A DNA stretch of 64,000 nt from assembly GCA_964016885.1 (NCBI GenBank), contig OZ024745.1:103974001-104038000 (forward strand). The letters are read 5' to 3'. Each line of letters begins with the position of its first letter. Position 1 is the stretch's first letter. The position numbers and the translations under genes are program-made. Below, in pieces: positions 344 through 53,006 of the stretch. The DNA is from Eledone cirrhosa. Its lineage: Eukaryota. The notes under the pieces were generated by a model. That model searched no databases. It had not been told where the DNA came from and saw only the letters and a list, made by a program, of their open reading frames with translations.

Positions 344-452
344 TCATGCCTGCTAGCTGGGTATGAATATCCGACTGTCCTGTCTGCTGGGCACCATCTT
401 CACCTAAATCAATAAGGTTGCCAACATTTGAAGATTGACTGGATGCCTGAAC
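344..452 (-). CDS. TOM1L2: TOM1/TOM1L2-like exon: VQASSQSSNVGNLIDLGEDGAQQTGQSDIHTQLAGM
   Basis: catcag/GTTAGT, 109 nt, phase 0 to 1. NLIDLG (clathrin-box-like) and QLAGM motifs are typical of TOM1/TOM1L2. Confidence 0.9.
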
Positions 453-2216: not shown

Positions 2217-2374
2217 CTGTTCATATGATGGTGGAAGATAAGAATCTTGTGTTACAGGTGGGGTATTGCTTGCATCAGTGGTTTGTGAACCTGTCTGTCC
2301 AGCTCGAAACCGTTCAAATCTCTCGTAACGGAGAAATACATTATTAAGGTCATCATTCACCCGTAGTAATTCAC
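2217..2374 (-). CDS. TOM1L2: TOM1/TOM1L2-like exon (GAT end): (S)[26 protein letters not shown]...PPSYEQ
   Basis: ttctag/GTAAGG, 158 nt, phase 1 to 0. [17 protein letters not shown] is characteristic of the TOM1L2 GAT domain. Confidence 0.96.
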
Positions 2375-5422: not shown

Positions 5423-5501
5423 TTGTGACTTCCTCATTGGCAACTTGGTCAAGTAAGTCTACAAGTCGCTGTTGCATTTGACGACAGGTTCGATTCAGTT
5501 C
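5423..5501 (-). CDS. TOM1L2: TOM1/TOM1L2-like exon (GAT): ELNRTCRQMQQRLVDLLDQVANEEVT
   Basis: gccttag/GTAAGT, 79 nt, phase 0 to 1. Contains the ELNRTCRxMQQR motif. Confidence 0.95.
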
Positions 5502-6271: not shown

Positions 6272-6589
6272 CTGCAAAAGTTCAAGATCTGAGGTGTCTA
6301 CATTGTAAGGGCTCAGTTCTGTCAACATTTCACCCATCACACGGACATTTCCTTGGACTACATCGAGTTCACTCTTCAGTTTGTCCAACTGTTCATTTGT
6401 TGGGATAATGGACCCACTAGACATGGTAACAGAAACCTGTTGCTGCTGCTGCGGCTGCTGTTGCTGCTGTTGTTGTTGTTGTTGTTGTTGTTGCTGCTGC
6501 TGCTGCTGCTGCTGTTGCTGTTGTAGTAAGAGTTGTTGTTGCTGTTGTTGCTGTTGTAGTAGTTGTTGTTGCGGTGGTGTATTTGTGGG
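6272..6589 (-). CDS. TOM1L2: TOM1/TOM1L2-like exon: polyQ linker plus start of the GAT domain (..[34 protein letters not shown])
   Basis: ctattgcag/GTAAGT, 318 nt, phase 0-0. Contains the GAT motif KLxSELDVVxGNxxVMxEMLTE. Confidence 0.93.
6438..6571 (-). repeat. Coding CAG/CAA polyglutamine tract
   Basis: Mixed (CTG/TTG)n on the plus strand. Translates as QQQLLQ8LLLQ23PQ5 inside the exon. Confidence 0.95.
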
Positions 6590-9704: not shown

Positions 9705-10989
9705 GGAGGATCAAAAAGTCCGCGGAATTTTATCGTAGCAAGAAAAAAAATCAGGTTAAAACAATATTAAACATGTCAGAACATTGTCACTTGTAGTCAG
9801 TTATGCCCGGGACTATTGTACAGTACTGACACTCTTTAAAAAACCTCTTTTTGGAACAATGGAAAATAGTTATTTTGAGATAAGGTCGAATATCAAGTTT
9901 CTGGTGAAACTCAAATGGAAAGGGACACAGATTATGGAGGCTTTAGTTAAAGTTTATGGTACTACTGCTCCAAAGAAAACTGCTGTCTACAAGTGGATTC
10001 AGCGATTCAAACAAGGGAAAAACGACCTTGAAGACCACCATCGTAGTGGAAGACCAGGAACATCAAAAAATGACCAAAACGTTGAGGCCGCTCAGACTTT
10101 AATTGAAGAAGATCGAAGAATAACAGTTAATCAGTTAACTAAGTCCTTAGACATTTCATATGGTTCAGCAAATTCAATTCTGCACGATAATTTGGGACTA
10201 AGCAAGCTTTCAGCGCGATGGGTCCCAAAAGCAGTGCGCCCTGATCAGCTGATTCTTCAAAGTGATCTGTCTTTGGCGATATTAAACAAAATTGAAGTTG
10301 ATGAAGAGCATTTCCTGACTAGAATCATCACCAGAGATGAAACCTGGATCTACCAGTATGATCCTGAATCCAAACAGCAGTCAAAACAGTGGCTTCCACG
10401 TGGATCATCGGGGCCAATCAAGTTCAAATCTCAAAAGTTGGATCAAGAAGTGATGGCCACCATTTTCTGGGATTCAGATGGGGTGATACTAATAGATTAT
10501 CTTGAAGGTCAAAGAACTGTGACAGGAGCTTACTATGCAAATGTTTTAAGGAAGCTGAAAGAGCCATTAGTCAAGAAACGAAAAGGGAAACTTCATGGTG
10601 GGATCCTGTTTCACCATGACAATGCACCAGCGCATTCTGCGCGGGTTGCAAAAGAAGTTCTTTGAGAATTTCCATGGGAAGTGCTTCCTCATCTGTCTTA
10701 TAGTCCAGATTTAGCCCCATCAGACTTTTTCCTCTTTCCAAAACTCAAAGAAATGCTAAAAGGAACCCGTTTTAGTGGTGTTGAAGAAGCTAAAAACACT
10801 GCCAACACATGGCTCCGAACAAGGCTTTCAACTTTCTTTAGAGACGGCTTACGAAGCTGGAAGCATTGCCTTGTGAAGTGTATTGACCTGGATGGCAACT
10901 ATGTAGAAAAATAAATTGAAGGTAAATCATATTTTTTGAAAAATAGATTATTTTCTGAAAAATTCCGCAAACTTTTTGATCCCCCCTCG
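9701..10989 (+). mobile_element. Full-length mariner transposon (Hsmar2/irritans-like), 1289 bp
   Basis: TIRs of about 30 bp: (t/c)gagggaggatcaaaaagtccgcggaatttt and aaaattccgcaaactttttgatcccccctcg. TA flanks, inserted in a (TA)n. Confidence 0.96.
9859..10914 (+). pseudogene. Mariner DD34D transposase with a single in-frame TGA at 10663-10665
   Basis: WVPK, ITRDETW, HHDNA and YSPDLAPSDF motifs. The two ORFs in the track are in the same frame across L*EFPWE. Confidence 0.93.
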
Positions 10990-17559: not shown

Positions 17560-17622
17560 AGCTTCTGTAGACATTCCTCTACTTCTGCTAAGGGTTGGGG
17601 CTTGTTCTGACACAGGAGTTGT
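17560..17622 (-). CDS. TOM1L2: Probable TOM1-like linker exon: TTPVSEQAPTLSRSRGMSTEA
   Basis: ttattccag acceptor, GTAAGT donor, 63 nt open in phase 0-0. It is a GC-richer unique island in an AT-rich intron. No conserved motif confirms it. Confidence 0.72.
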
Positions 17623-22915: not shown

Positions 22916-23050
22916 TCTGGCAGGTGTGTGGATAGGTGCCAATTTATCTAAATCAGTCATAGGAAATTCAATGCCTTTTCCTTTCAAGTCCTGGTATACC
23001 TTCTCCACCTCTTTCAGCTCTGCTGAGCCATGGAAGGCATCTGCCCAAGT
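22916..23050 (-). CDS. TOM1L2: TOM1/TOM1L2-like exon (VHS end): [45 protein letters not shown]
   Basis: Not in the ORF track; translated by hand. ttttccag/GTAAGT, 135 nt. WADAF and [16 protein letters not shown] are TOM1-family motifs. Confidence 0.96.
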
Positions 23051-38838: not shown

Positions 38839-38985
38839 CTGTATAAGACTTAATACCTTCTCTTGCACAACCGGAGGAGGATCATTCTTTGGTCCAATTA
38901 TTTTGATTAACTCATGAAGAAACTCTTTATTTGCGACTTGAAGGTGAAATCTCTTACCACAGTTTTTTACACAGGTCTCCAGCAA
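38839..38985 (-). CDS. TOM1L2: TOM1/TOM1L2-like exon (VHS): [49 protein letters not shown]
   Basis: tttttag acceptor, GTGAGT donor, 147 nt, phase 0-0. LETCVKNCG is the VHS signature. Confidence 0.96.
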
Positions 38986-41907: not shown

Positions 41908-44706
41908 GATCAATAGAGGTAGTTCGAGTTAGTAATCAAATAATTAAGCTTAGATTAGTTGTAGGCAGGAGACTACTGACAACCATCTCTGCCTATGCTC
42001 CCCAAGCAGGCCTAGGCAAAGAAGAGAAAGACTGCTTTTACGATCAACTTTTACAAACAACCGCAATGACAGAGGACAGAGACATCGTTATGCTAGCAGG
42101 GGACTTCAATGGTCATGTTGGACAGCTCCAGGATGGTTACACTGGGGTACATGGTGGGCACGGTTACGGCTCAAGAAATGAAGAAGGAGTGAGACTTCTT
42201 GAATTTTGTGATGCAAGTACACTGACTATTTGCAACACTAACTTCCAGAAACCTGCCAACCACCTAATAACCTACAAATCAGGCGAGCACATAAGCCAGA
42301 TTGACTTCTTACTAGTTAGGCAGCGGGACAGGCAGATGGTGTCTAATACCAAGGCATACCTTGGAGAAGAATGTACCCCACAGCATAGGTTAGTCATTAG
42401 TGATATCTTAGTAAGCAAGAGATGGAATGAGACATACAGGAAGGTGTGGAGAAGAAAGGTCTGTAAGCTAAAAGACCTTTCACTAAAATACAAATTTAGT
42501 AAAGCCCTTCAAGATGTGTATGACGAAAAAGAAAACGATTTAGAGACGTATGGCATAGATAATAACTGGAATTTCTTACGTGACAACTTACTGCAGGCTA
42601 CTGATGAAACTTCTGGCTGGAGCAGAGCTCCAACCAGACAGAGAGTGACCTGGTGGTGGAACAGCACAGTAGATAAGGCCATTAGAGACAAAAAACTAGC
42701 ATGGAAGGCTTGGAAAAAGGGTGGGAGTAGAGAAGGATATACAGCCGCTAAGAGAGAAGCTAGATGTCAGGTGTACTTAGCACTCAGGAAGGCTGAGAGT
42801 AGTAGGTTTGCCAATGTTCTGCGACGGGAAGATCAGAGGCATGCGGTGTTCATACATTGCAAGACAGTGTGCCAATGCAAATCAGGATGTTGTTGGACAT
42901 TAAATGTGTCCGGAATGATGTTATGTACTTAGTGTCACAAATGATCAGAAAAAGGAGGCCCGGAAATCTCATTATAAGAGACAGATGAATCTGGAGAATG
43001 AATGGGAGAGAGAGAAATTACCCTCAGTAGATCCGACAGAGGGACCAGCTATTGAGATTGACGAATATAGGGTCCAAGAGGCGATTAAGGAAATGAAAAA
43101 TGGTAAGGCTGCTGGACCATCGGGGATAGTTGCTGAGATGCTGAAGGCATGAGGGGACGTAGGCACTAAACTGGTTGCACGCATCATCAATCAGGCTATA
43201 TATGGTGGTGTCATACCAAAAGTCTGGTGCAGCAGTATTCTCATAAATTGCTACAAAGGTAAAGGGGATGCTCTGGAGAGGAGCAATTATAGGGGTATAA
43301 AACTGATGGATCAGGTTATGAAAGTGGCAGAAAGGATATTAGCACAACTAATTAAAGAAAGGGTCAAACTAGATGAGATGCAGTTTGGTTTTGTGCCTGG
43401 GAAGAGTACAACAGATACCCTCTTCTTGGTGAGACAATTACAAGAGAGGTTCTTAGAGAAAAATAAGCCACTATACTTAGCCTTTGTTGACCTTGAGAAG
43501 GCCTTTGATAGGGTACCCCGCTCTGTCATCTGGTGGTCCCTAAGGAAACTAGGTGTTGAGGAATGGCTTGTGAGGACAGTGCAAACTTTGTACAGAGGTA
43601 CTGTGAGTAAAGTGAGGGTAGGAACGGAGTTTAGTGAGGAATTCCAGATACAAGTAGGAGTACATCAAGGTTCGGTCCTCAGCCTGCTCTTGTTCATTAT
43701 AGTCCTCCAAGCCATAACAGAGGAGTTTAAGACTGGCTGTCCATGGGAACTTCTCTATGCTGACGATCTGGTTCTTATAGCAGAATCAGTAGAGGAGCTA
43801 GAGAATAAATTCTGGCTATGGAAACAGCAGTTGGAAGCAAGAGGACTGAGAGTGAACCTAGCTAAGACAAAAGTGTTGATGAGTAGAAAAGAGGACAAAA
43901 CTCTGATTCCATCAGGGAAATAGCCATGTTCGATATGCAGAAAAGGAACTGGCATAAATTCTATAAAATGCACACAATGCAGATCCTGGGTACACAAGAG
44001 ATGTAGTGGGATAGCAGGCAAACTAACAGGTAGGGAGAAATACGTATGCAGTAGATGTACAGGGAAATTAGACAGTAGAAGTCGCATTGATAGACACATT
44101 TTTCAAATGCAGGCAGGTGCTATAGAAGTGGTGGATAGCTTCCGGTACCTAGGAGATCAGATTAGCATGGGAGGGGTGTGGTCCGAGGCCATAGTATCTA
44201 GAATAAAGACGGGTTGGAAGAAGTTTAGCGAGCTGCTTCTTCTGCTGACAAAGAAGGGTTTCTCCCTGCGTACGATAGGCCGGTTATATGATGCCTGTGT
44301 GAGGAGCGCGATGCTGCATGCTAATGAGACATGGACAGCAACTACAGAGAATATGCGACGGCTGGAGAGAAATGAGGCAAGCATGCTCCGTTGGATGTGC
44401 AATGTCAATGTGCGTGAACGACCCAGCATAAATGTGTTGAGAGAGAAACTGTGTCTGAGAGGCATAGAATGTAGTGTGCGGGAGAGGAGACTGAGGTGGT
44501 ATGGACATGTGATGCGCATGGAGGATGACCGATGGGTGAAGAAGTGCCAGGAAATGCCAGTTGAAGGAAGACGTGATAGAGGTAGACCACGAAAAACATG
44601 GGCGGAGGACCGTGACAAGTGGAGAGATGCTGTGCTGAATAGGACCCGTCCCACCCTTGCAAGCAGGCAAAAGCGGACGTAAAATGATGATGATAATGAT
44701 GATGAT
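41908..44706 (+). mobile_element. Decayed, 5'-truncated copy of the 26307 RTE
   Basis: Colinear with 26632-29470. It has a frameshift near 42850-42930, stops at about 43150 and 43921, and a deletion near 44607. Confidence 0.95.
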
Positions 44707-45008: not shown

Positions 45009-46044
45009 GCTTTTTTTAAAAGTTAGTCTTATGCACTACTCCAAATCCCTGTACTACTTGACAGCAGGACTTTGCTACAGGATGTTTTTCTACTGATAAT
45101 GCCTGATTATGCTCAAAGGAAGGAGTAGTTGGAAGTAGTGAATCAAAAGAATTATTCTTAAATCGGAGTTCTGGTCTGAATGCTTGCAACAAGAGCTCTG
45201 CTAAATGTAAACAAGGGCAAGAGAGTAGTGATAAATCAAGTGAAGTGTTATGCCAACCACTCCCTAAAATGGAGTTCCCTCTCTAACAGTCATGTTTTAT
45301 CATAATATCAGCACTAGAAGTTGTCTTACAGTACTGAGATCCTCTGTGTTGATCATTTTCATTTTAGAATGTTCAAGCCATTGCATAGGCTGCTTTCACT
45401 TTATGATAACTCAGGATTTGGAATATAAAATTTGTAGCAGCCTGTTTTTCTCCCCAAGAGGTATTTGAGATACAGTAAAACATTGGAAAACATGAAGCTA
45501 ACCTATTTGTTCTTTACCATTTCTCACATTCACAACTAAAGGAATAAAGCTGTCAGTTTATTTGACTCATTGACTTTAAAGTCTAAATGCCATCACAGAA
45601 GCAATACTGGAGTGTTTGGCAAGCTACTTAACTTTTATCATCATCATTATCACCATTTTATGACTATTTTCCATGCTTGGATTGGTTAGATGAGTTATCA
45701 TGCTTGCATGGCAGGTTAGACATGTCTTGCTCATACGTAACATTTTGGCATGGTTTCTACAGCTGGATGCTTTTCCGTTAGGAAAAGCATCCAGCTGTAT
45801 GATATGTACCAGGTTAGTTTTCTTGTGGTACAACCACTATTTGACAGCGTGGACTGGGGTCTTTTTTACAAGACATCAACACTACCACTTTACAGAGTGG
45901 GCTGGGTGCATTTATTGTGGCACCAGTACTGTTATTTCATTTTAGTTTGCCTGGCTGTAAATCTGGAACTCAACAGTGATAATGATAAGAAAGAAATGAA
46001 GAAATGAATAACAAAAGGAAGAGAAAAAAAACAGAAATACTTAC

Positions 46045-46129
46045 AATAAGAGTGTACATGACGGCCGCGTAATTCTTGCCAGCATTCTGTTGCAGCTTTT
46101 TCTTTATGGCACGTATTGCATCTTTTGGT
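46045..46129 (-). CDS. TOM1L2: TOM1/TOM1L2-like exon (VHS domain): (G)PKDAIRAIKKKLQQNAGKNYAAVMYTLI
   Basis: ttccag acceptor, GTAAGT donor, 85 nt (phase 2 to 0). The peptide matches the TOM1-family VHS motif GPKDAxRAxKK. Confidence 0.93.
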
Positions 46130-46604
46130 CTGGAAGAAAAATAAATATGCAATATTAAAAGTAGCTCAAATATATATATATAAAAAAACCTTGTAGCTAA
46201 ATTAGTGGTATACACAGATGCCGAACGTGACTGTTTAAATAATATCAATAAATTGTTCTGGTAAAAGCCTCATTATTTCCTGTCAAAGAGTTATTTACCA
46301 GTAGATAGTACTTTTAGTATCAACTTATAATACAAATTACATGCTCCTATTGACAAATTCTCTCCCAACACTCTTGCATATGAAGCTTGTAGTTTTGAAA
46401 ATAAAGCAATACTGATAATTCTAGTGCACAATCTGAATTTTAAATAAGGAGAGATATTTTCTGAATCAAAATAATAAAATGTGTATGAAATATAAGTATG
46501 ATGATTGATCAGATATGTAATATTTGTGAGGAATTTGTTTTAAATTTGGATGTATTTTACCTAAACATGTAAAATTTGGAGAAAATTCTGTCAGCATAAC
46601 AACA

Positions 46605-48177
46605 AAGGCCTGGAAATGTCATTTTGAGACACTGATGAATGTGGAGAACAAATGGGAGAGAGAGAGAAATTACCTCCAGTAGATCCGACAGAGGGACCAG
46701 CTATTGAGATTGACAAATATAGGGTCCAAGAGGCGATTAAGGAAATGAAAAATGGTAAGGCCGCTGGACTGTCGGCGATAGTTGCTGAGATGCTGAAGGC
46801 GTCAGGGGATGTAGGCACTAAACTGGTTGCACGCATCATCAATCAGGCTATATATGGCGGTGTCATACTCAAAGACTGGTGCAGCAGTATTCTCATAAAT
46901 TGCTACAAAGGTAAAGGGGATGCTCTGGAGAGGAGCAATTATAGGGGCATAAAGCTGATGGATGGGGTCATGAAAGTGGCAGAAAGGATATTAGCACAAC
47001 TGATTAGAGAAAGGGTCAAACTAGATGAGATGCAGTTTGGTTTTGTGCCAGGGAAAAGTACAACAGATGCCCTCTTCTTAGTGAAACAATTACTAGAGAG
47101 GTTCTTAGAGAAGAATAAGCCACTATACTTAGCTTTTGTTGATCTAGAGAAAGCCTTTGATAGAGTACCCCGATCTGTCATCTGGTGGTCCCTAAGGAAG
47201 CTGGGTGTTGAGGAATGGCTTGTGAGGACAGTGCAAGCTTTGTACAGAGTGCTGTCAGTAAAATGATGGTAGGAATGGAGTTTAGTGAGGAATTCCAAAA
47301 GTGTTGATGAGTAGAAAAGAGGACAAAACTCTGATTCCGTCAGGGAAATGGCCATGTTCGATATGCAGAGAAGGAACTGGCATAAATTCTATAAAATGTA
47401 CACAATGCTGATCTTGGGTACACAAGTGATGTAGTGGGAGAACAGGCAAACTAACAGGTAGGGAGAAATACGTATGCAGTAGATGTACAGGGAAATTAGA
47501 CAGTAGAAGTCGCATTGATAGACACATTTTTCAAATGCAGGGAGGTGCTATAGAAGTGGTGGATAGCTTCCGGTACCTAGGTGATCAGATTAGCATGGGA
47601 GGGGGCGGGGTGTTCCGGGGCCATAGTATCTAGAATAAGGACGGGTTGGAAGAAGTTTAGGGAGCTGCTTCCTCTGCTGACGAAGAAGGGTTTCTCCCTA
47701 TTTACGAAAGGCCGGTTATGATGCCGGTGTGCGATGCTGCATGGTAGTGAGACATGGGCAGCAACTGCTGAGGATATATGACAGCTGGAGAGAAATGAGG
47801 CAAGCATGCTCTGTTGGATGTGCAATGTCAATGTGCATGAACAGCTGAGCATGAATGTGTTGAGAGAGAAACTGTGTCTGAGAGGGATAAATTGTTGTGT
47901 GCAGGAGAGGAGACTGCGATGCTGTGGACATGTGATGCGCATGGAGGATGACCGATGGGTGAAGAAGTGCCAAGAAATGCCAGTTGAAGGAAGACGTAGT
48001 AGAGGTAGACCACGAAAAACATGGGCGGAGGTGGTGAGATCAGACTTCAGATCGCTGAAGCTCACGGTGGAGATGACAAAGGACCATGACAAGTGGAGAG
48101 ATGCTGTGCTGAATAGGACCCGTCCCACCCTTGCAAGCAGGGAAAAGCAGACGTAAAATGATGATGGTGATGATGAT
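46605..48177 (+). mobile_element. Decayed RTE copy with an internal deletion removing the QG/YADD region
   Basis: Colinear with 27680-29470 but jumps from gaggaattcca to aaagtgttgatg at about 47298. Confidence 0.95.
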
Positions 48178-48928
48178 ATAATATATACATATAATAATTG
48201 TTTCTACTTTAGGTACAGGGCCAGCAATTACCCAGTGCATTACTGGTACTTTATTTTATCGACCCCCGTAAGGATGAAAGGCAAAGTCAACCTCGGCGGG
48301 ATATATACATATAATAATGGGTATAAATTGAAGTTGTAGCTGCAGTATAACAGATATATATATATTAAACTGGTCCTTTTGATGCCACAACAAAAAGTGC
48401 TCAGCCCACACAGTAAAGTGGTCATGTTGCTGACATGACAAAAGAGAAAAAACGCCCAGTCCACACTGTTAAAGTGGTTGTGTAGGTGTCATGACAAAAA
48501 GTGCCCAGCCCACACTGCAAATCTGATTGGCGTTAGAAAAGGCATCCAGGCATAGAAACCAAGCCTAAATCAGTTCTGCATGAGCAAGACACGGTCATCT
48601 GATCTGACTTGTTTCACAACAACTCGTATAACACATGCTAGTGTGGAAAAATGGACGTTAATTGATGATGATGATGATTATTATTATAATAGTGTGTGTG
48701 TGTATGATGATGATGATGATGACAATATATACAATCATTTTCTGAACACAGAAAACTTTCATGACACTGAAATATAGTTATATAGGTTAACTGTTTAATT
48801 TTCTTATGAACTTACACATTGCCAATGTTAAGGTGGCTATCTATTACTAGTTGTGTTGTTAAGGTTAGGAGAGATCGTTAAACTAATTGCATTTATATCA
48901 ATAGTCTAGCACCAAACTCTTTACTCAC

Positions 48929-48937
48929 CCTGCTTCT
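48929..48937 (-). CDS. Candidate 9-nt microexon (AGAAGCAGG) of the TOM1-like gene
   Basis: Minus strand reads tttgttcttttttattttattatttttatatattag|AGAAGCAGG|gtgagtaa. It would preserve frame in the phase-2 intron upstream of exon 46129. Confidence 0.5.
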
Positions 48938-50527
48938 CTAATATAATAAAATAATAAAATAAAAAAGAACAAACACTTCTGAATTTCTCAATATGAATGT
49001 AGCTGTAAATTAACACAACTTGGGAGCCTTGAAACTGCTAGCTTATCCATATATTGAATAATGCATAAAGTCATACAGAAGCCTTGGACATGCATATTTG
49101 CTTCCAAAATATTATTAAAGCAATTGAATACATTTTTTCATGACAGGTTTCTATGAAACTTTCTGTAAAATCCCTTTAAAGAAAACTACTTTTTTAAAAG
49201 AAAAAATCTAATAAAAAAATTGCCAAATTTGAAACTGAAAACCTCAAAAAACAGATATTGTTACAGTAATGGCTGACTGAATACACACAGGTTTTTTTGT
49301 TTAAAAAATGTTTTTCTGTTCCTTCCTCTTCTACTCTCTATTTTGTCTTTTATTTCTCATTCTATCTTCTGGTGAAGGACTAGAGTCTGAAACATTAAGA
49401 CTCTTTTCCTACTACATCAAGCATTAAATTAATTTATTTCTTCATTGTTTCAGTTTACTTTTTGGACACACACATACATACATACATACATACATGCTGT
49501 ATTTCCCGGTGCTGAAGACGTTACTTTTTCCCTAAAATAAGTCTCAAAAATCTACCATGAGTCCTGGAGGTTGAAGGTTGTGTATTATTTTTTTTCAAAT
49601 TTTTGCTTGTCAAAATTAGGGAGCGTCCTCGAGGACACAGCATCTTTGGCGTCAGGAAATACAGTATATCTGTACGTAGAAAAATGCTGAGGAAAAAAAA
49701 AGCATAAGCCTTTGAATGCTGAAAGGTGAATAGATATCTAACCAATAGCATGGTGAAGTCTAGAAAGAAAGATAGCAGCAAGAACAGAAGTGATGAAAGA
49801 TGGGGAGCAAAACTGTAGAGAAGTGAGAGTAAGTAAGAGTTGGAAAAGGGAAGAGAGATAGAGAATCCTAGTAAATAATAGTAAATGTTAACTTGTTAGA
49901 GTTGAAAGAAAATGCTGTGTAGCATTTGTCAATAAGCAATTATTATAAAAGAAAAACATGTGTCTCCTGGATTTTAGAATAGGTACACCGTATCCCTGAA
50001 TGTTGTAAGAGGTGACTTAAAATGACTTGGTGTCAGGAAAGACATCCAGATGTAAAACACTGTCTTAAAATATCTCATCCAACCCATGCCAGCAATGGAG
50101 ATGTGGGTGGCCATTAAAAATACAACAAACAAAAAAAAAAAATGATCATGAAAGACAGTGAAAAATCATACCTAGACAATGTCAAGAAACAGACAAAAGA
50201 AATGAACCCAAAACAATTACATGACAGGTATTTCCACACCCCAATCACACTGACAGCAAGCTGTCTATTTGAATATTTTCTTAGGTAGTTTCCACACAAA
50301 AGACAGTAGCACTGTGTGTGTGTGCATATTGTACATGAGAGTGTATGTAGATGTGTCTTAAAACATTATTATTTATGTTTAACTTCAAGCCAAAGAATAC
50401 AGACCATTATATGTGTGTGTGTGCGTGTATGTGCATGTGTGTATCCTGGATTCAATCGGGGGTAACCAGAATTAAGTGAGGTACTCGATACATAGCAGAG
50501 TATAAATTTTTAATATAGAAATCGCTG

Positions 50528-50592
50528 CTACAGGACTAGAACTGTTTCATTCAAAGGAAATCATCGGGAATGAAACAGTTCTAGTCCTGTAG
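50528..50592. repeat. 25-bp-arm perfect inverted repeat, probable Penelope inverted terminus
   Basis: ctacaggactagaactgtttcattc-(15 nt)-gaatgaaacagttctagtcctgtag. The minus strand has CCGATGA-tttcctttgaat-GAAAC. Confidence 0.8.
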
Positions 50593-50780
50593 AAGCCATT
50601 TATATATATATATATAAATGTGGTTGGTGTTAGGAAGGGCATCCAGCTGTCGAAAACCTACCAGAGACACTTCCGTACGAGCAAGATACAGTCTCCCAAC
50701 CATTCGTGCATCAAATAGAACAAAACGGTCTAACCCATGCTAGCGTGGAAGATGGACATTAAACGATGATGATGATGATG

Positions 50781-50812
<32 letters not shown>

Positions 50813-50979
50813 ATATGTATATATATTTATATATATATTATAGGCACTCGTTTTACGTGTGTTGTATTGAAGTGAATAGCTGTGAATATTCTGCGAATGT
50901 ATCTTACATTGCCCATGGAGTACGCTGAGATACAACCGGTCCTGGCATTGATAAATATGCTGGGTCCGTCAACTCCTTA

Positions 50980-51623
50980 TCTATATATATAAAACTGAGG
51001 ATGTCTGTCTGTGTGTGTGTCTGTGAGTTTGAATCCCTAAAACTCGAGAAGTACCCAACTGATTTTTTTCAAACTTTACATGTGTATTACATATGTTGCA
51101 GGGAGTGTTATGCACATAAAAAATTCTACTTTTTGATCCCCTAGGGCCTGCATTAGGTGAAAAACTGCGTTTTTTCAGCTTTTTAGCGGTTTTTTGAGGC
51201 GTTACGTCAGACCGATTTCCTTGAAATTGTAACTATGTATTAGTCAGTCTCTTCTTCATACCATGAGCAAAGAAAATCCAACTTTTTTTTATGGCCTAGG
51301 GTCCGCATTAGGTAAAATATTCATTTTTTCAGCTTTTTAGAGCTTTTTTCAGGCGTTACGTCTAGCCGATTTTCCAGAAATTTCAAGGCATATTATGCAC
51401 ATAAAAAAAATTCGTTTTCTTGATCCCCTAGGGCTCACATTAGGTGAGAACCTGCACTTTTCCTGCTTCATCGAGGAAAATCTCAAAGATTATCCAGCCA
51501 TCAGAGTATTCGGTTTATTTTCTTTACATATTGTCCAGGCATGCAGTTTTTTCACGATTAGGTCTGTTGGCGGCCCGCGTTCCAAAATACCTTATCCCGT
51601 GCAACGCCGGGTACCACTGCTAG
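50980..51623 (+). mobile_element. Non-autonomous Helitron with internal sub-repeats
   Basis: a|TCTATATATATAAAA start, (TGTC/TG)n microsatellite, terminal hairpin CCCGtgcaacgcCGGG, then CTAG|t. No TSD. Confidence 0.9.
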
Positions 51624-51689
51624 TTTTATATATATATATATATATATATATACTATAAATTATGTTCATAGAATCATTTGATAAGATAT

Positions 51690-51887
51690 ATACACCATTT
51701 CATCTCAATAGTTGATATTTGAGATGTAAATATCCCAGAAATTACAAAGTCTAGGAGTGAGTGAGTGTTATAATGTTGATAAATTTTGAGCTGTTCAACA
51801 TTAAAACTGGTCAGTCTCATTGTCCTAGACTTTATAGTTTCTGAGATATTTACATCCCAAATATCAATTTTTTTTAAACACACTGTA
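51690..51887. mobile_element. Degraded Tc1/mariner-type MITE
   Basis: Inverted arms ttgatatttgagatgtaaatatcccagaaa and tttctgagatatttacatcccaaatatcaa. Ends in acactgTA. Confidence 0.6.
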
Positions 51888-52416
51888 TATACCCTAGAAG
51901 ATTTCACACCCATTGAATACAACTATTTTTTAAACCTATAAATGCTGCTCCGTCAATGGAATCAAGGTCTGAATATGTGTGTGTGTGTGTATATATATAT
52001 ATATCCTCTTATCACCCTTCACTTTCTAGTTATCTTCTATTTCTATTTCTCATGACGGACTAGTGTTCAAAACGTTAAGACTCTCTTCCTTTTATTTCAA
52101 GTATTAAACTAATATATTTCTTCCATATACTGTGCCGTTATTTTTGTTATTTCAATCAGGATAAAACTTTACACTATCAATGTATAATTTACACTATGTC
52201 ATCTTCCTATCCAGCTCCTTTGGAACAACAAAAATATTCTCATTTAGCTAATATAAAGAATGACAAAAAATAATTTAACTCCTTGATTACATTTAATGCA
52301 CAGATGCTTGAATTCTTGAATATTCCTACCTCCATTGTAAAAGTAACAGGTCTATCCTTTCACGAAACCCTTAAAGCCAGGGACATTTCAGCATCCCTTG
52401 TGTGTGTATATATATA

Positions 52417-52942
52417 TAGTATCTAGAATAAGGACAGGATGGAAGTTTAGGGAGCTGCTTCGTCTGTTGACAACGAAGGGTTTTTCCCTGTGAACGAAAG
52501 GTTGGTTGTATGATGCCTGTATGAGATGTGCGATGCTGCATGGTAGTGAGACATGGGCAGCAACTGCGGAGGATATGCGAAGGCTGGAGAGAAATTAAGC
52601 AAGCATGCTCTGATGGATGTGCAATGTCTGTGTGTGTGAACGACCAAACAGACGAGTTGAGAGTGGAACTGTGTATAAGAGGAATAAACTGTAGTGTGAA
52701 GGACAGAAGACTGTGTTGGTATGGCCATGTGATGCGTATGGAAGATGACCACTGAATGAAGAAGTGCCATGTAGAAGGAAGGCGCAGTAGAGGAAGACCA
52801 CGAAAAACATGGGCGGAGGTGGTGAGAGCTGACCTCAGATTGCCGAAGTTCACAGAGGAGATGACGAGGGACCGTGGCGAATGGTACCCATTCCCACCCT
52901 TGCAAGCAAGGAAAAGCACATGTATGATGATGATGATGATGA
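52417..52942 (+). mobile_element. RTE LINE 3' fragment
   Basis: Homologous to 28915-29470, with an (atg)n tail. Confidence 0.9.
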
Positions 52943-53006
52943 TATATATATACATATAGACATACACACATATACAATGAATTTCTGCATGTCTGTGTGT
53001 GTGTGT

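Follow-up and report, generated by a model that had tools for sequence, protein, structure and literature searches.

Does a 9-nt stretch with strong splice sites, deep inside a long intron of an endosomal-trafficking gene from an octopod, serve as an exon, or does the spliceosome pass over it? The first-pass annotation of the window, by which we mean the whole 64,000-nt stretch analysed (positions 103974001-104038000 of a 3.0-Gb animal genome), had proposed that it does, as a regulated neural microexon adding three residues to a VHS domain. Microexons are a recognised class of exon in trafficking genes, and those of 9 nt are frequently overlooked by gene annotation. Long introns also hold pseudo-exons, splice-site pairs without a record of use.

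The host gene and the 9-nt element

By its predicted protein, the host gene is an octopod orthologue of TOM1/TOM1L2. Assembled from the window and neighbouring stretches, it comprises 16 coding exons over a span of ~118 kb, with an intact, stop-free frame of 580 residues. The predicted protein is identical to an Octopus TOM1 record (P0121) at 538 of 545 aligned residues, and to an Argonauta TOM1 record at 521 of 550. A profile search found the VHS domain (PF00790) over its cut-off at exon 4, and the nearest protein records contain both PF00790 and PF03127. Like the TOM1/TOM1L2 family of VHS-GAT adaptors, the protein has an N-terminal VHS domain, a GAT domain in the middle and a tail in an intact reading frame. 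The Q-rich tract of exon 7 exceeds that of the Octopus records by ~35 residues (580 vs. 545 aa for the protein). The exons, with extended coordinates for those outside the window, are arranged as follows.

Extended coordinates 99462-99405, minus strand: TOM1 exon 1, past the window end
Extended coordinates 73782-73698, minus strand: TOM1 exon 2, 9.7 kb past the window end
46045..46129, minus strand: TOM1 coding exon 3, VHS helix 3 onward
38839..38985, minus strand: TOM1 coding exon 4, VHS
22916..23050, minus strand: TOM1 coding exon 5, VHS end
17560..17622, minus strand: TOM1 exon 6, 63 nt, in some Octopus isoform records and missing from others
6272..6589, minus strand: TOM1 exon 7, Q-rich tract and GAT start
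5423..5501, minus strand: TOM1 exon 8, GAT
2217..2374, minus strand: TOM1 exon 9, GAT end
344..452, minus strand: TOM1 exon 10
Before the window start, minus strand: TOM1 exons 11-16; the 27-nt alternative exon annotated in the Octopus records is one of them, at extended coordinates -7274 to -7300

The candidate lies in intron 2, which is 27,568 nt long and in phase 2, at ~2.8 kb upstream of exon 3. The features around it are listed below.

48929..48937, minus strand: candidate 9-nt exon AGAAGCAGG, which would add Glu-Ala-Gly in phase 2
48938..48973, minus strand: U-rich tract and TAG acceptor, with a 36-nt AG-free zone and an acceptor score of 14.1
48923..48928, minus strand: GTGAGT donor of the 9-nt form, donor score 9.4
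48816..48937, minus strand: possible 122-nt stop-containing exon, running from the same acceptor to a further donor, GTAAGT (48815-48810; score 8.9)
48732..49263, no strand assigned: single-copy island around the candidate, in a repeat-rich intron

The U-rich tract, the TAG, the 9 nt (48937-48929) and the GTGAGT that the first-pass annotation described are all present on the minus strand (48973-48923). Exon 3 begins at 46129 in phase 2 (A CCA AAA GAT), as had been stated, and the prediction that the upstream exon ends in GG is borne out by exon 2, which falls beyond the window: its last letters are GAG GG before GTTAGT, also in phase 2. Since exon 2 ends in GG and exon 3 starts with A, inclusion would insert Glu-Ala-Gly with Gly-Pro retained, and the proposal that 9 nt would preserve the frame of this phase-2 intron without a stop is sound. 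The element is purine-rich and GG-ended, and the 9 nt between its AG and GT fall within the microexon size range of 3-27 nt. A canonical recursive splice site, in which GT directly follows AG, was ruled out by inspection, as GGT follows the CAG.

The site is single in the genome, by a 371-nt DNA search and by a 19-nt pattern search. The island around it measures ~530 nt, has a read depth of 7.6-15.3 at 48700-49263 and is flanked by high-copy repeats: depth exceeds 5000 in every bin from 46510 to 48749, and falls below 30 in 6 of the 30 bins of 48700-52900, four of which are the island. A repeat origin of the island was rejected on its single copy in the genome searches and on depth. The non-repetitive setting that had been claimed thus holds for the island and not for the U-rich tract, itself a short tandem repeat of A/T composition (48939-48966, 8-nt unit, 3.5 copies, 90% matches). 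A search of 46000-52000 against Rfam at gathering thresholds gave no matches.

Splice-site strength against chance

Splice sites were scored with a crude matrix built from the 15 acceptors and 15 donors of the host gene, which strongly favours T. On this scale the candidate reaches 14.1 + 9.4 = 23.5 and ties second against the 14 real internal exons scored leave-one-out; its donor (9.4, vs. 3.6-13.3 for real donors, leave-one-out) is a strong 5′ site. On the sense strand of the gene's introns (115,878 bases, ~116 kb) it is the best unannotated candidate of 3-27 nt, the sole match scoring above it being a real acceptor that has a GT inside. At thresholds set by the weakest real sites, 12 sense-strand matches of 3-27 nt were found. 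Two of these are in frame, the 9-nt candidate and the annotated 27-nt exon; about 3.5 in-frame matches are expected by chance, and the overlap with an annotated exon is not significant. A 23-nt out-of-frame candidate with a score of 22.2 lies at extended coordinate -5322, ~5.3 kb before the window and 158 nt after exon 12, and is either a pseudo-exon or a poison exon.

Other stretches of the same genome, amounting to 1,199,600 strand-bases (~1.2 Mb), served as controls and yielded 62 look-alikes that passed the thresholds (16 in frame). Three of them reach a score of 20 and none reaches 22, the best standing at 21.9; the candidate, which is in frame, is stronger than all 62. By convolving the site frequencies, 53, 4.2 and 1.6 are predicted at those levels, against 62, 3 and 0 observed, indicating that the estimate is roughly calibrated. 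At a threshold of 23.5, fixed by the candidate itself, the crude matrix gives a chance expectation of 0.052 in-frame elements in the gene's introns and, with every length counted, 0.69 elements in 1.2 Mb of control. Extrapolation gives ~200 in-frame elements this strong per Gb of intron, so that a genome scan would meet many of them. The element is thus uncommon per gene, and not rare in a genome-wide scan.

The composition of the element adds modest weight in its favour. Among controls at loci scanned singly (n = 60), 9 end in GG and 8 have a purine content of 85% or more; of the in-frame controls, likewise from loci scanned singly, 9 of 15 are free of stops; the GG end, purine content and stop-free frame of the candidate are to be read against these rates. 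Its tract has no C in positions -25 to -4, where all 15 real acceptors of the gene have 2-6. A C-free tract is found in 17 of 114 strong chance acceptors.

Protein records, the VHS loop and homologous introns

The position of the insertion between helices of the VHS domain, as the first-pass annotation had it, agrees with an alignment to the human TOM1 VHS structure 1ELK combined with helix assignments from the parts of the published accounts available to us. P0121 aligns to 1ELK with an E-value of 1.5e-53 and without gaps around the exon 2-3 junction. In human TOM1, C37 lies on helix 2, K48 and R52 lie on helix 3, and W30 belongs to the ubiquitin face (PMC6659632 and PMC7952518, both in part). 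On this alignment and literature, the predicted insertion point falls in the helix 2-3 connection, and the proposed PtdIns5P patch has its first lysine two residues further on.

We assembled 366 TOM1-family proteins from protein searches and cluster members, one of the searches contributing the best 120 of 423 matches and large clusters contributing a part of their members. The helix 2-3 loop is covered in 349 of them; among these matches listed, 348 have loops of equal length, one is a residue shorter and none carries an insertion. The other 17 do not span the loop. Ten octopod records, from species other than that of this genome, all join exon 2 to exon 3 directly, and differ among themselves by two alternative exons of the gene, of 63 nt and 27 nt. 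Among the protein matches listed, none is named as coming from squid or cuttlefish. Given the different species behind the octopod records, and the ease with which annotation misses exons of 9 nt, this negative lowers the case for use and does not close it. Short proteins (31-100 aa) spanning the junction yielded no candidate, and the 23-nt pattern of the site had no match in metagenome contigs.

A phase-2 intron stands at the same position in 11 of 39 metagenome loci (59-738 nt, four of them near-identical), indicating that the intron is old. Several other genomic TOM1 loci, including several with insect-like TOM1 proteins, have no intron at this junction, indicating that it was lost in some lineages. 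An in-frame YAG-N3-27-GTRAG arrangement is present in none of the 11 homologous introns of distant animals, several of which are too short for one. A weak 17-nt match was seen in two of the 11.

The annotated 27-nt exon of O. sinensis, O. vulgaris and O. bimaculoides offers a comparison within the same gene. Like the candidate, it is short, in frame and passes the same thresholds; unlike the candidate, it is present in protein records, has TGC at -22 and -38 and has C in its tract. The 27-nt exon lies in the C-terminal tail, whereas the candidate would fall inside the folded VHS domain.

A literature search found no paper pairing a microexon with a VHS domain. For microexons together with TOM1/TOM1L2, the matches listed held one mention of a microexon, in a paper on another gene. 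A study of O. bimaculoides splicing (bioRxiv 10.64898/2026.09.05.749416) makes no mention of TOM1 in its main text, the part available, and its supplements may list the exon, should it exist.

Regulation and competing readings

The genome encodes an eMIC-type regulator. A match to PF15230 (SRRM_C) scores 29.3 bits against a cut-off of 27, and two exons of the SRRM_C/eMIC-type domain of the Srrm234 gene lie at G000:C22:28167743-28167880 and ~28146455 (minus strand), ~21 kb apart. In the available part of PMC8797185 and its preprint, fly eMIC exons are described as combining a weak 3′ site and a long AG-free zone with a UGC close to that site, UCUC-rich tracts and CUAAY branch points. The accessible portion of bioRxiv 2024.09.17.613571 reports UGC in 57 of 73 and 51 of 71 SRRM3/4-dependent microexons and treats it as not strictly required. 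Set beside these partial accounts, the candidate resembles eMIC/SRRM3/4 neural microexons in size (3-27 nt, a multiple of 3), in its strong 5′ site and perhaps its 36-nt AG-free zone, in its endosomal-trafficking host gene and in the presence of the regulator domain in the genome. It differs from them in having no nearby UGC, UCUC tract or upstream CUAAY branch point, in a tract that adjoins the AG, and in a 3′ site that scores as strong, not weak, on the crude matrix.

Upstream of the candidate, the first TGC is reached at a distance of 128 nt, consistent with the first-pass annotation's own caveat that no UGC lies close to the 3′ splice site. TCTC and CTAAY are likewise absent upstream of the candidate within the island, and occur only downstream of it in 48700-49300. 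The annotated 27-nt exon has TGC at both positions given above, and 8 of the 15 real acceptors, including those of both alternative exons, have TGC in -40 to -5, so the motif is not very selective here. The 36-nt AG-free zone falls inside the range of the real acceptors (15-92), and the acceptor score of 14.1 is high on the crude matrix. With no insertion in any of the 349 loop-covering proteins among the matches listed, and with UGC, UCUC and CUAAY absent upstream, the claim of a regulated Srrm/eMIC neural exon is not supported, and the element is not filed as an eMIC microexon. One TGCATG, which we take to be an Rbfox-type motif, lies in the 49093-49098 region (minus strand), ~157 nt upstream of the candidate.

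We favour the reading that the element is a skipped pseudo-exon in TOM1 intron 2 and takes no part in a working mRNA, with a probability of roughly 0.55; this and the gradings that follow are judgements, not computed values. The U-rich tract would have arisen as an A/T slippage repeat beside an AG, with GTGAGT falling by chance at a distance of 9 nt. Lacking a microexon enhancer (UGC/UCUC or a strong branch point), a 9-nt exon would be too short for definition, and the spliceosome would then join exon 2 straight to exon 3. In our judgement, what argues against use is that no record contains the element, that the loop is invariant in length, that the enhancer code is missing, that the tract is a C-free repeat and that the genome-wide chance rate is sizeable; strong sites, frame, single-copy island, purine content and gene class argue for use. 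The candidate shares with intronic pseudo-exons a splice-site pair in a long intron and no record of use. As an unused element it would be a commonplace pseudo-exon, and would illustrate that in AT-rich genomes of 3 Gb microexons cannot be called from sequence alone.

A tentative alternative is that the element is a regulated microexon, probably a neural one, by which Glu-Ala-Gly is added in the loop from VHS helix 2 to helix 3. Under this alternative the added residues would immediately precede the Pro-Lys at the start of helix 3, bringing an acidic side chain beside the basic patch proposed to bind PtdIns5P and lengthening the loop after ubiquitin-binding helix 2, and would tune membrane or cargo binding. 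It draws on the strong sites, with ~0.05 such elements expected per gene, on the position of the element mid-island in single-copy DNA, on a purine-rich 9-mer that keeps Gly-Pro, and on the gap-free alignment around the junction of the region holding human K48, R52 and W30. The host gene already has alternative exons of 27 and 63 nt, and the SRRM_C match above the Pfam cut-off is joined by the domain's next exon on C22. The fly gene CG3529 is the TOM1L2 orthologue (PMC11040104, in part), and its exon DmeEX0002103, of 51 nt, is eMIC-sensitive as measured in RNA (PMC8797185, table S2, in part). The likeness is one of gene family and of alternative use under eMIC, and was drawn without regard to position in the gene. 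The missing UGC weighs less given that, in the available part of bioRxiv 2024.09.17.613571, about a quarter of SRRM3/4-dependent microexons have none. Against these points stand the lack of an insertion in all 349 proteins among the matches listed, with a loop of almost invariant length, the C-free repeat tract, and the absence of eMIC cis-elements together with a 3′ site that scores strong on the crude matrix where fly eMIC exons have a weak one (PMC8797185, in part).

An unannotated, octopod-specific neural TOM1 microexon that works without the UGC/UCUC code, and whose acceptor might in addition serve a poison exon of 122 nt, is less likely than not. If the element is used, it would be a loop insertion unmatched in the 349 TOM1-family proteins among the matches listed, beside residues linked to PtdIns5P and ubiquitin binding, and one more trafficking gene independently gaining a short exon in cephalopods. 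Since microexons in trafficking genes are already known, the gain would be one new example and not a new mechanism. Either main reading is a fresh instance of an already known kind.

Less probable still is use as that 122-nt poison exon, in which the candidate's acceptor would pair with the second donor at 48815 and send the mRNA to nonsense-mediated decay. The fourth in-frame codon of this form is TGA, supplied by the GTGAGT donor of the 9-nt form. Such an exon would be of ordinary size, its whole span lies inside the single-copy island, and it would account for the absent protein records; moreover, 2 of the 14 donors scoring at least 8 in the 27.6-kb intron fall within 122 nt of the candidate's acceptor. 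The second donor (8.9) is, however, weaker than the first (9.4), and the pairing was spotted post hoc and has no controls. A 21-nt in-frame stretch at 48816-48836 (minus strand) also ends at the second donor (48815); it has TCTC and CTAAC ~30-40 nt upstream, and is preceded by a weak acceptor containing tandem AGs.

That the element is a decayed copy of exon 2's 3′ end and donor, or results from an assembly error, is very improbable and largely refuted: by eye 6 of 9 exon bases match and the donor is also similar, but the local alignment score of 68 is reached by 16 of 200 shuffles and is not significant, and contigs from DNA runs X1-X3 (which behave as genomic DNA from a single sample, probably the assembly's source and hence not independent) show no differences from the assembly over 48732-49300.

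Several other features of the locus were recorded. A mariner-like long frame with one stop at window positions 9760-10911 (plus strand), within intron 6, is presumably a mariner-type transposase. Stop-containing frames at 42919-44679 (plus strand), with fragments near 47581-48153 and 52525-52956, lie in introns 2 and 3 and are, we assume, from a reverse-transcriptase-like LINE; the LINE-like fragments of intron 2 are of very high copy. A very strong 45-nt exon-like element (32.6) at extended coordinate -74686 (plus strand) probably belongs, as an exon, to a neighbouring gene on the opposite strand.
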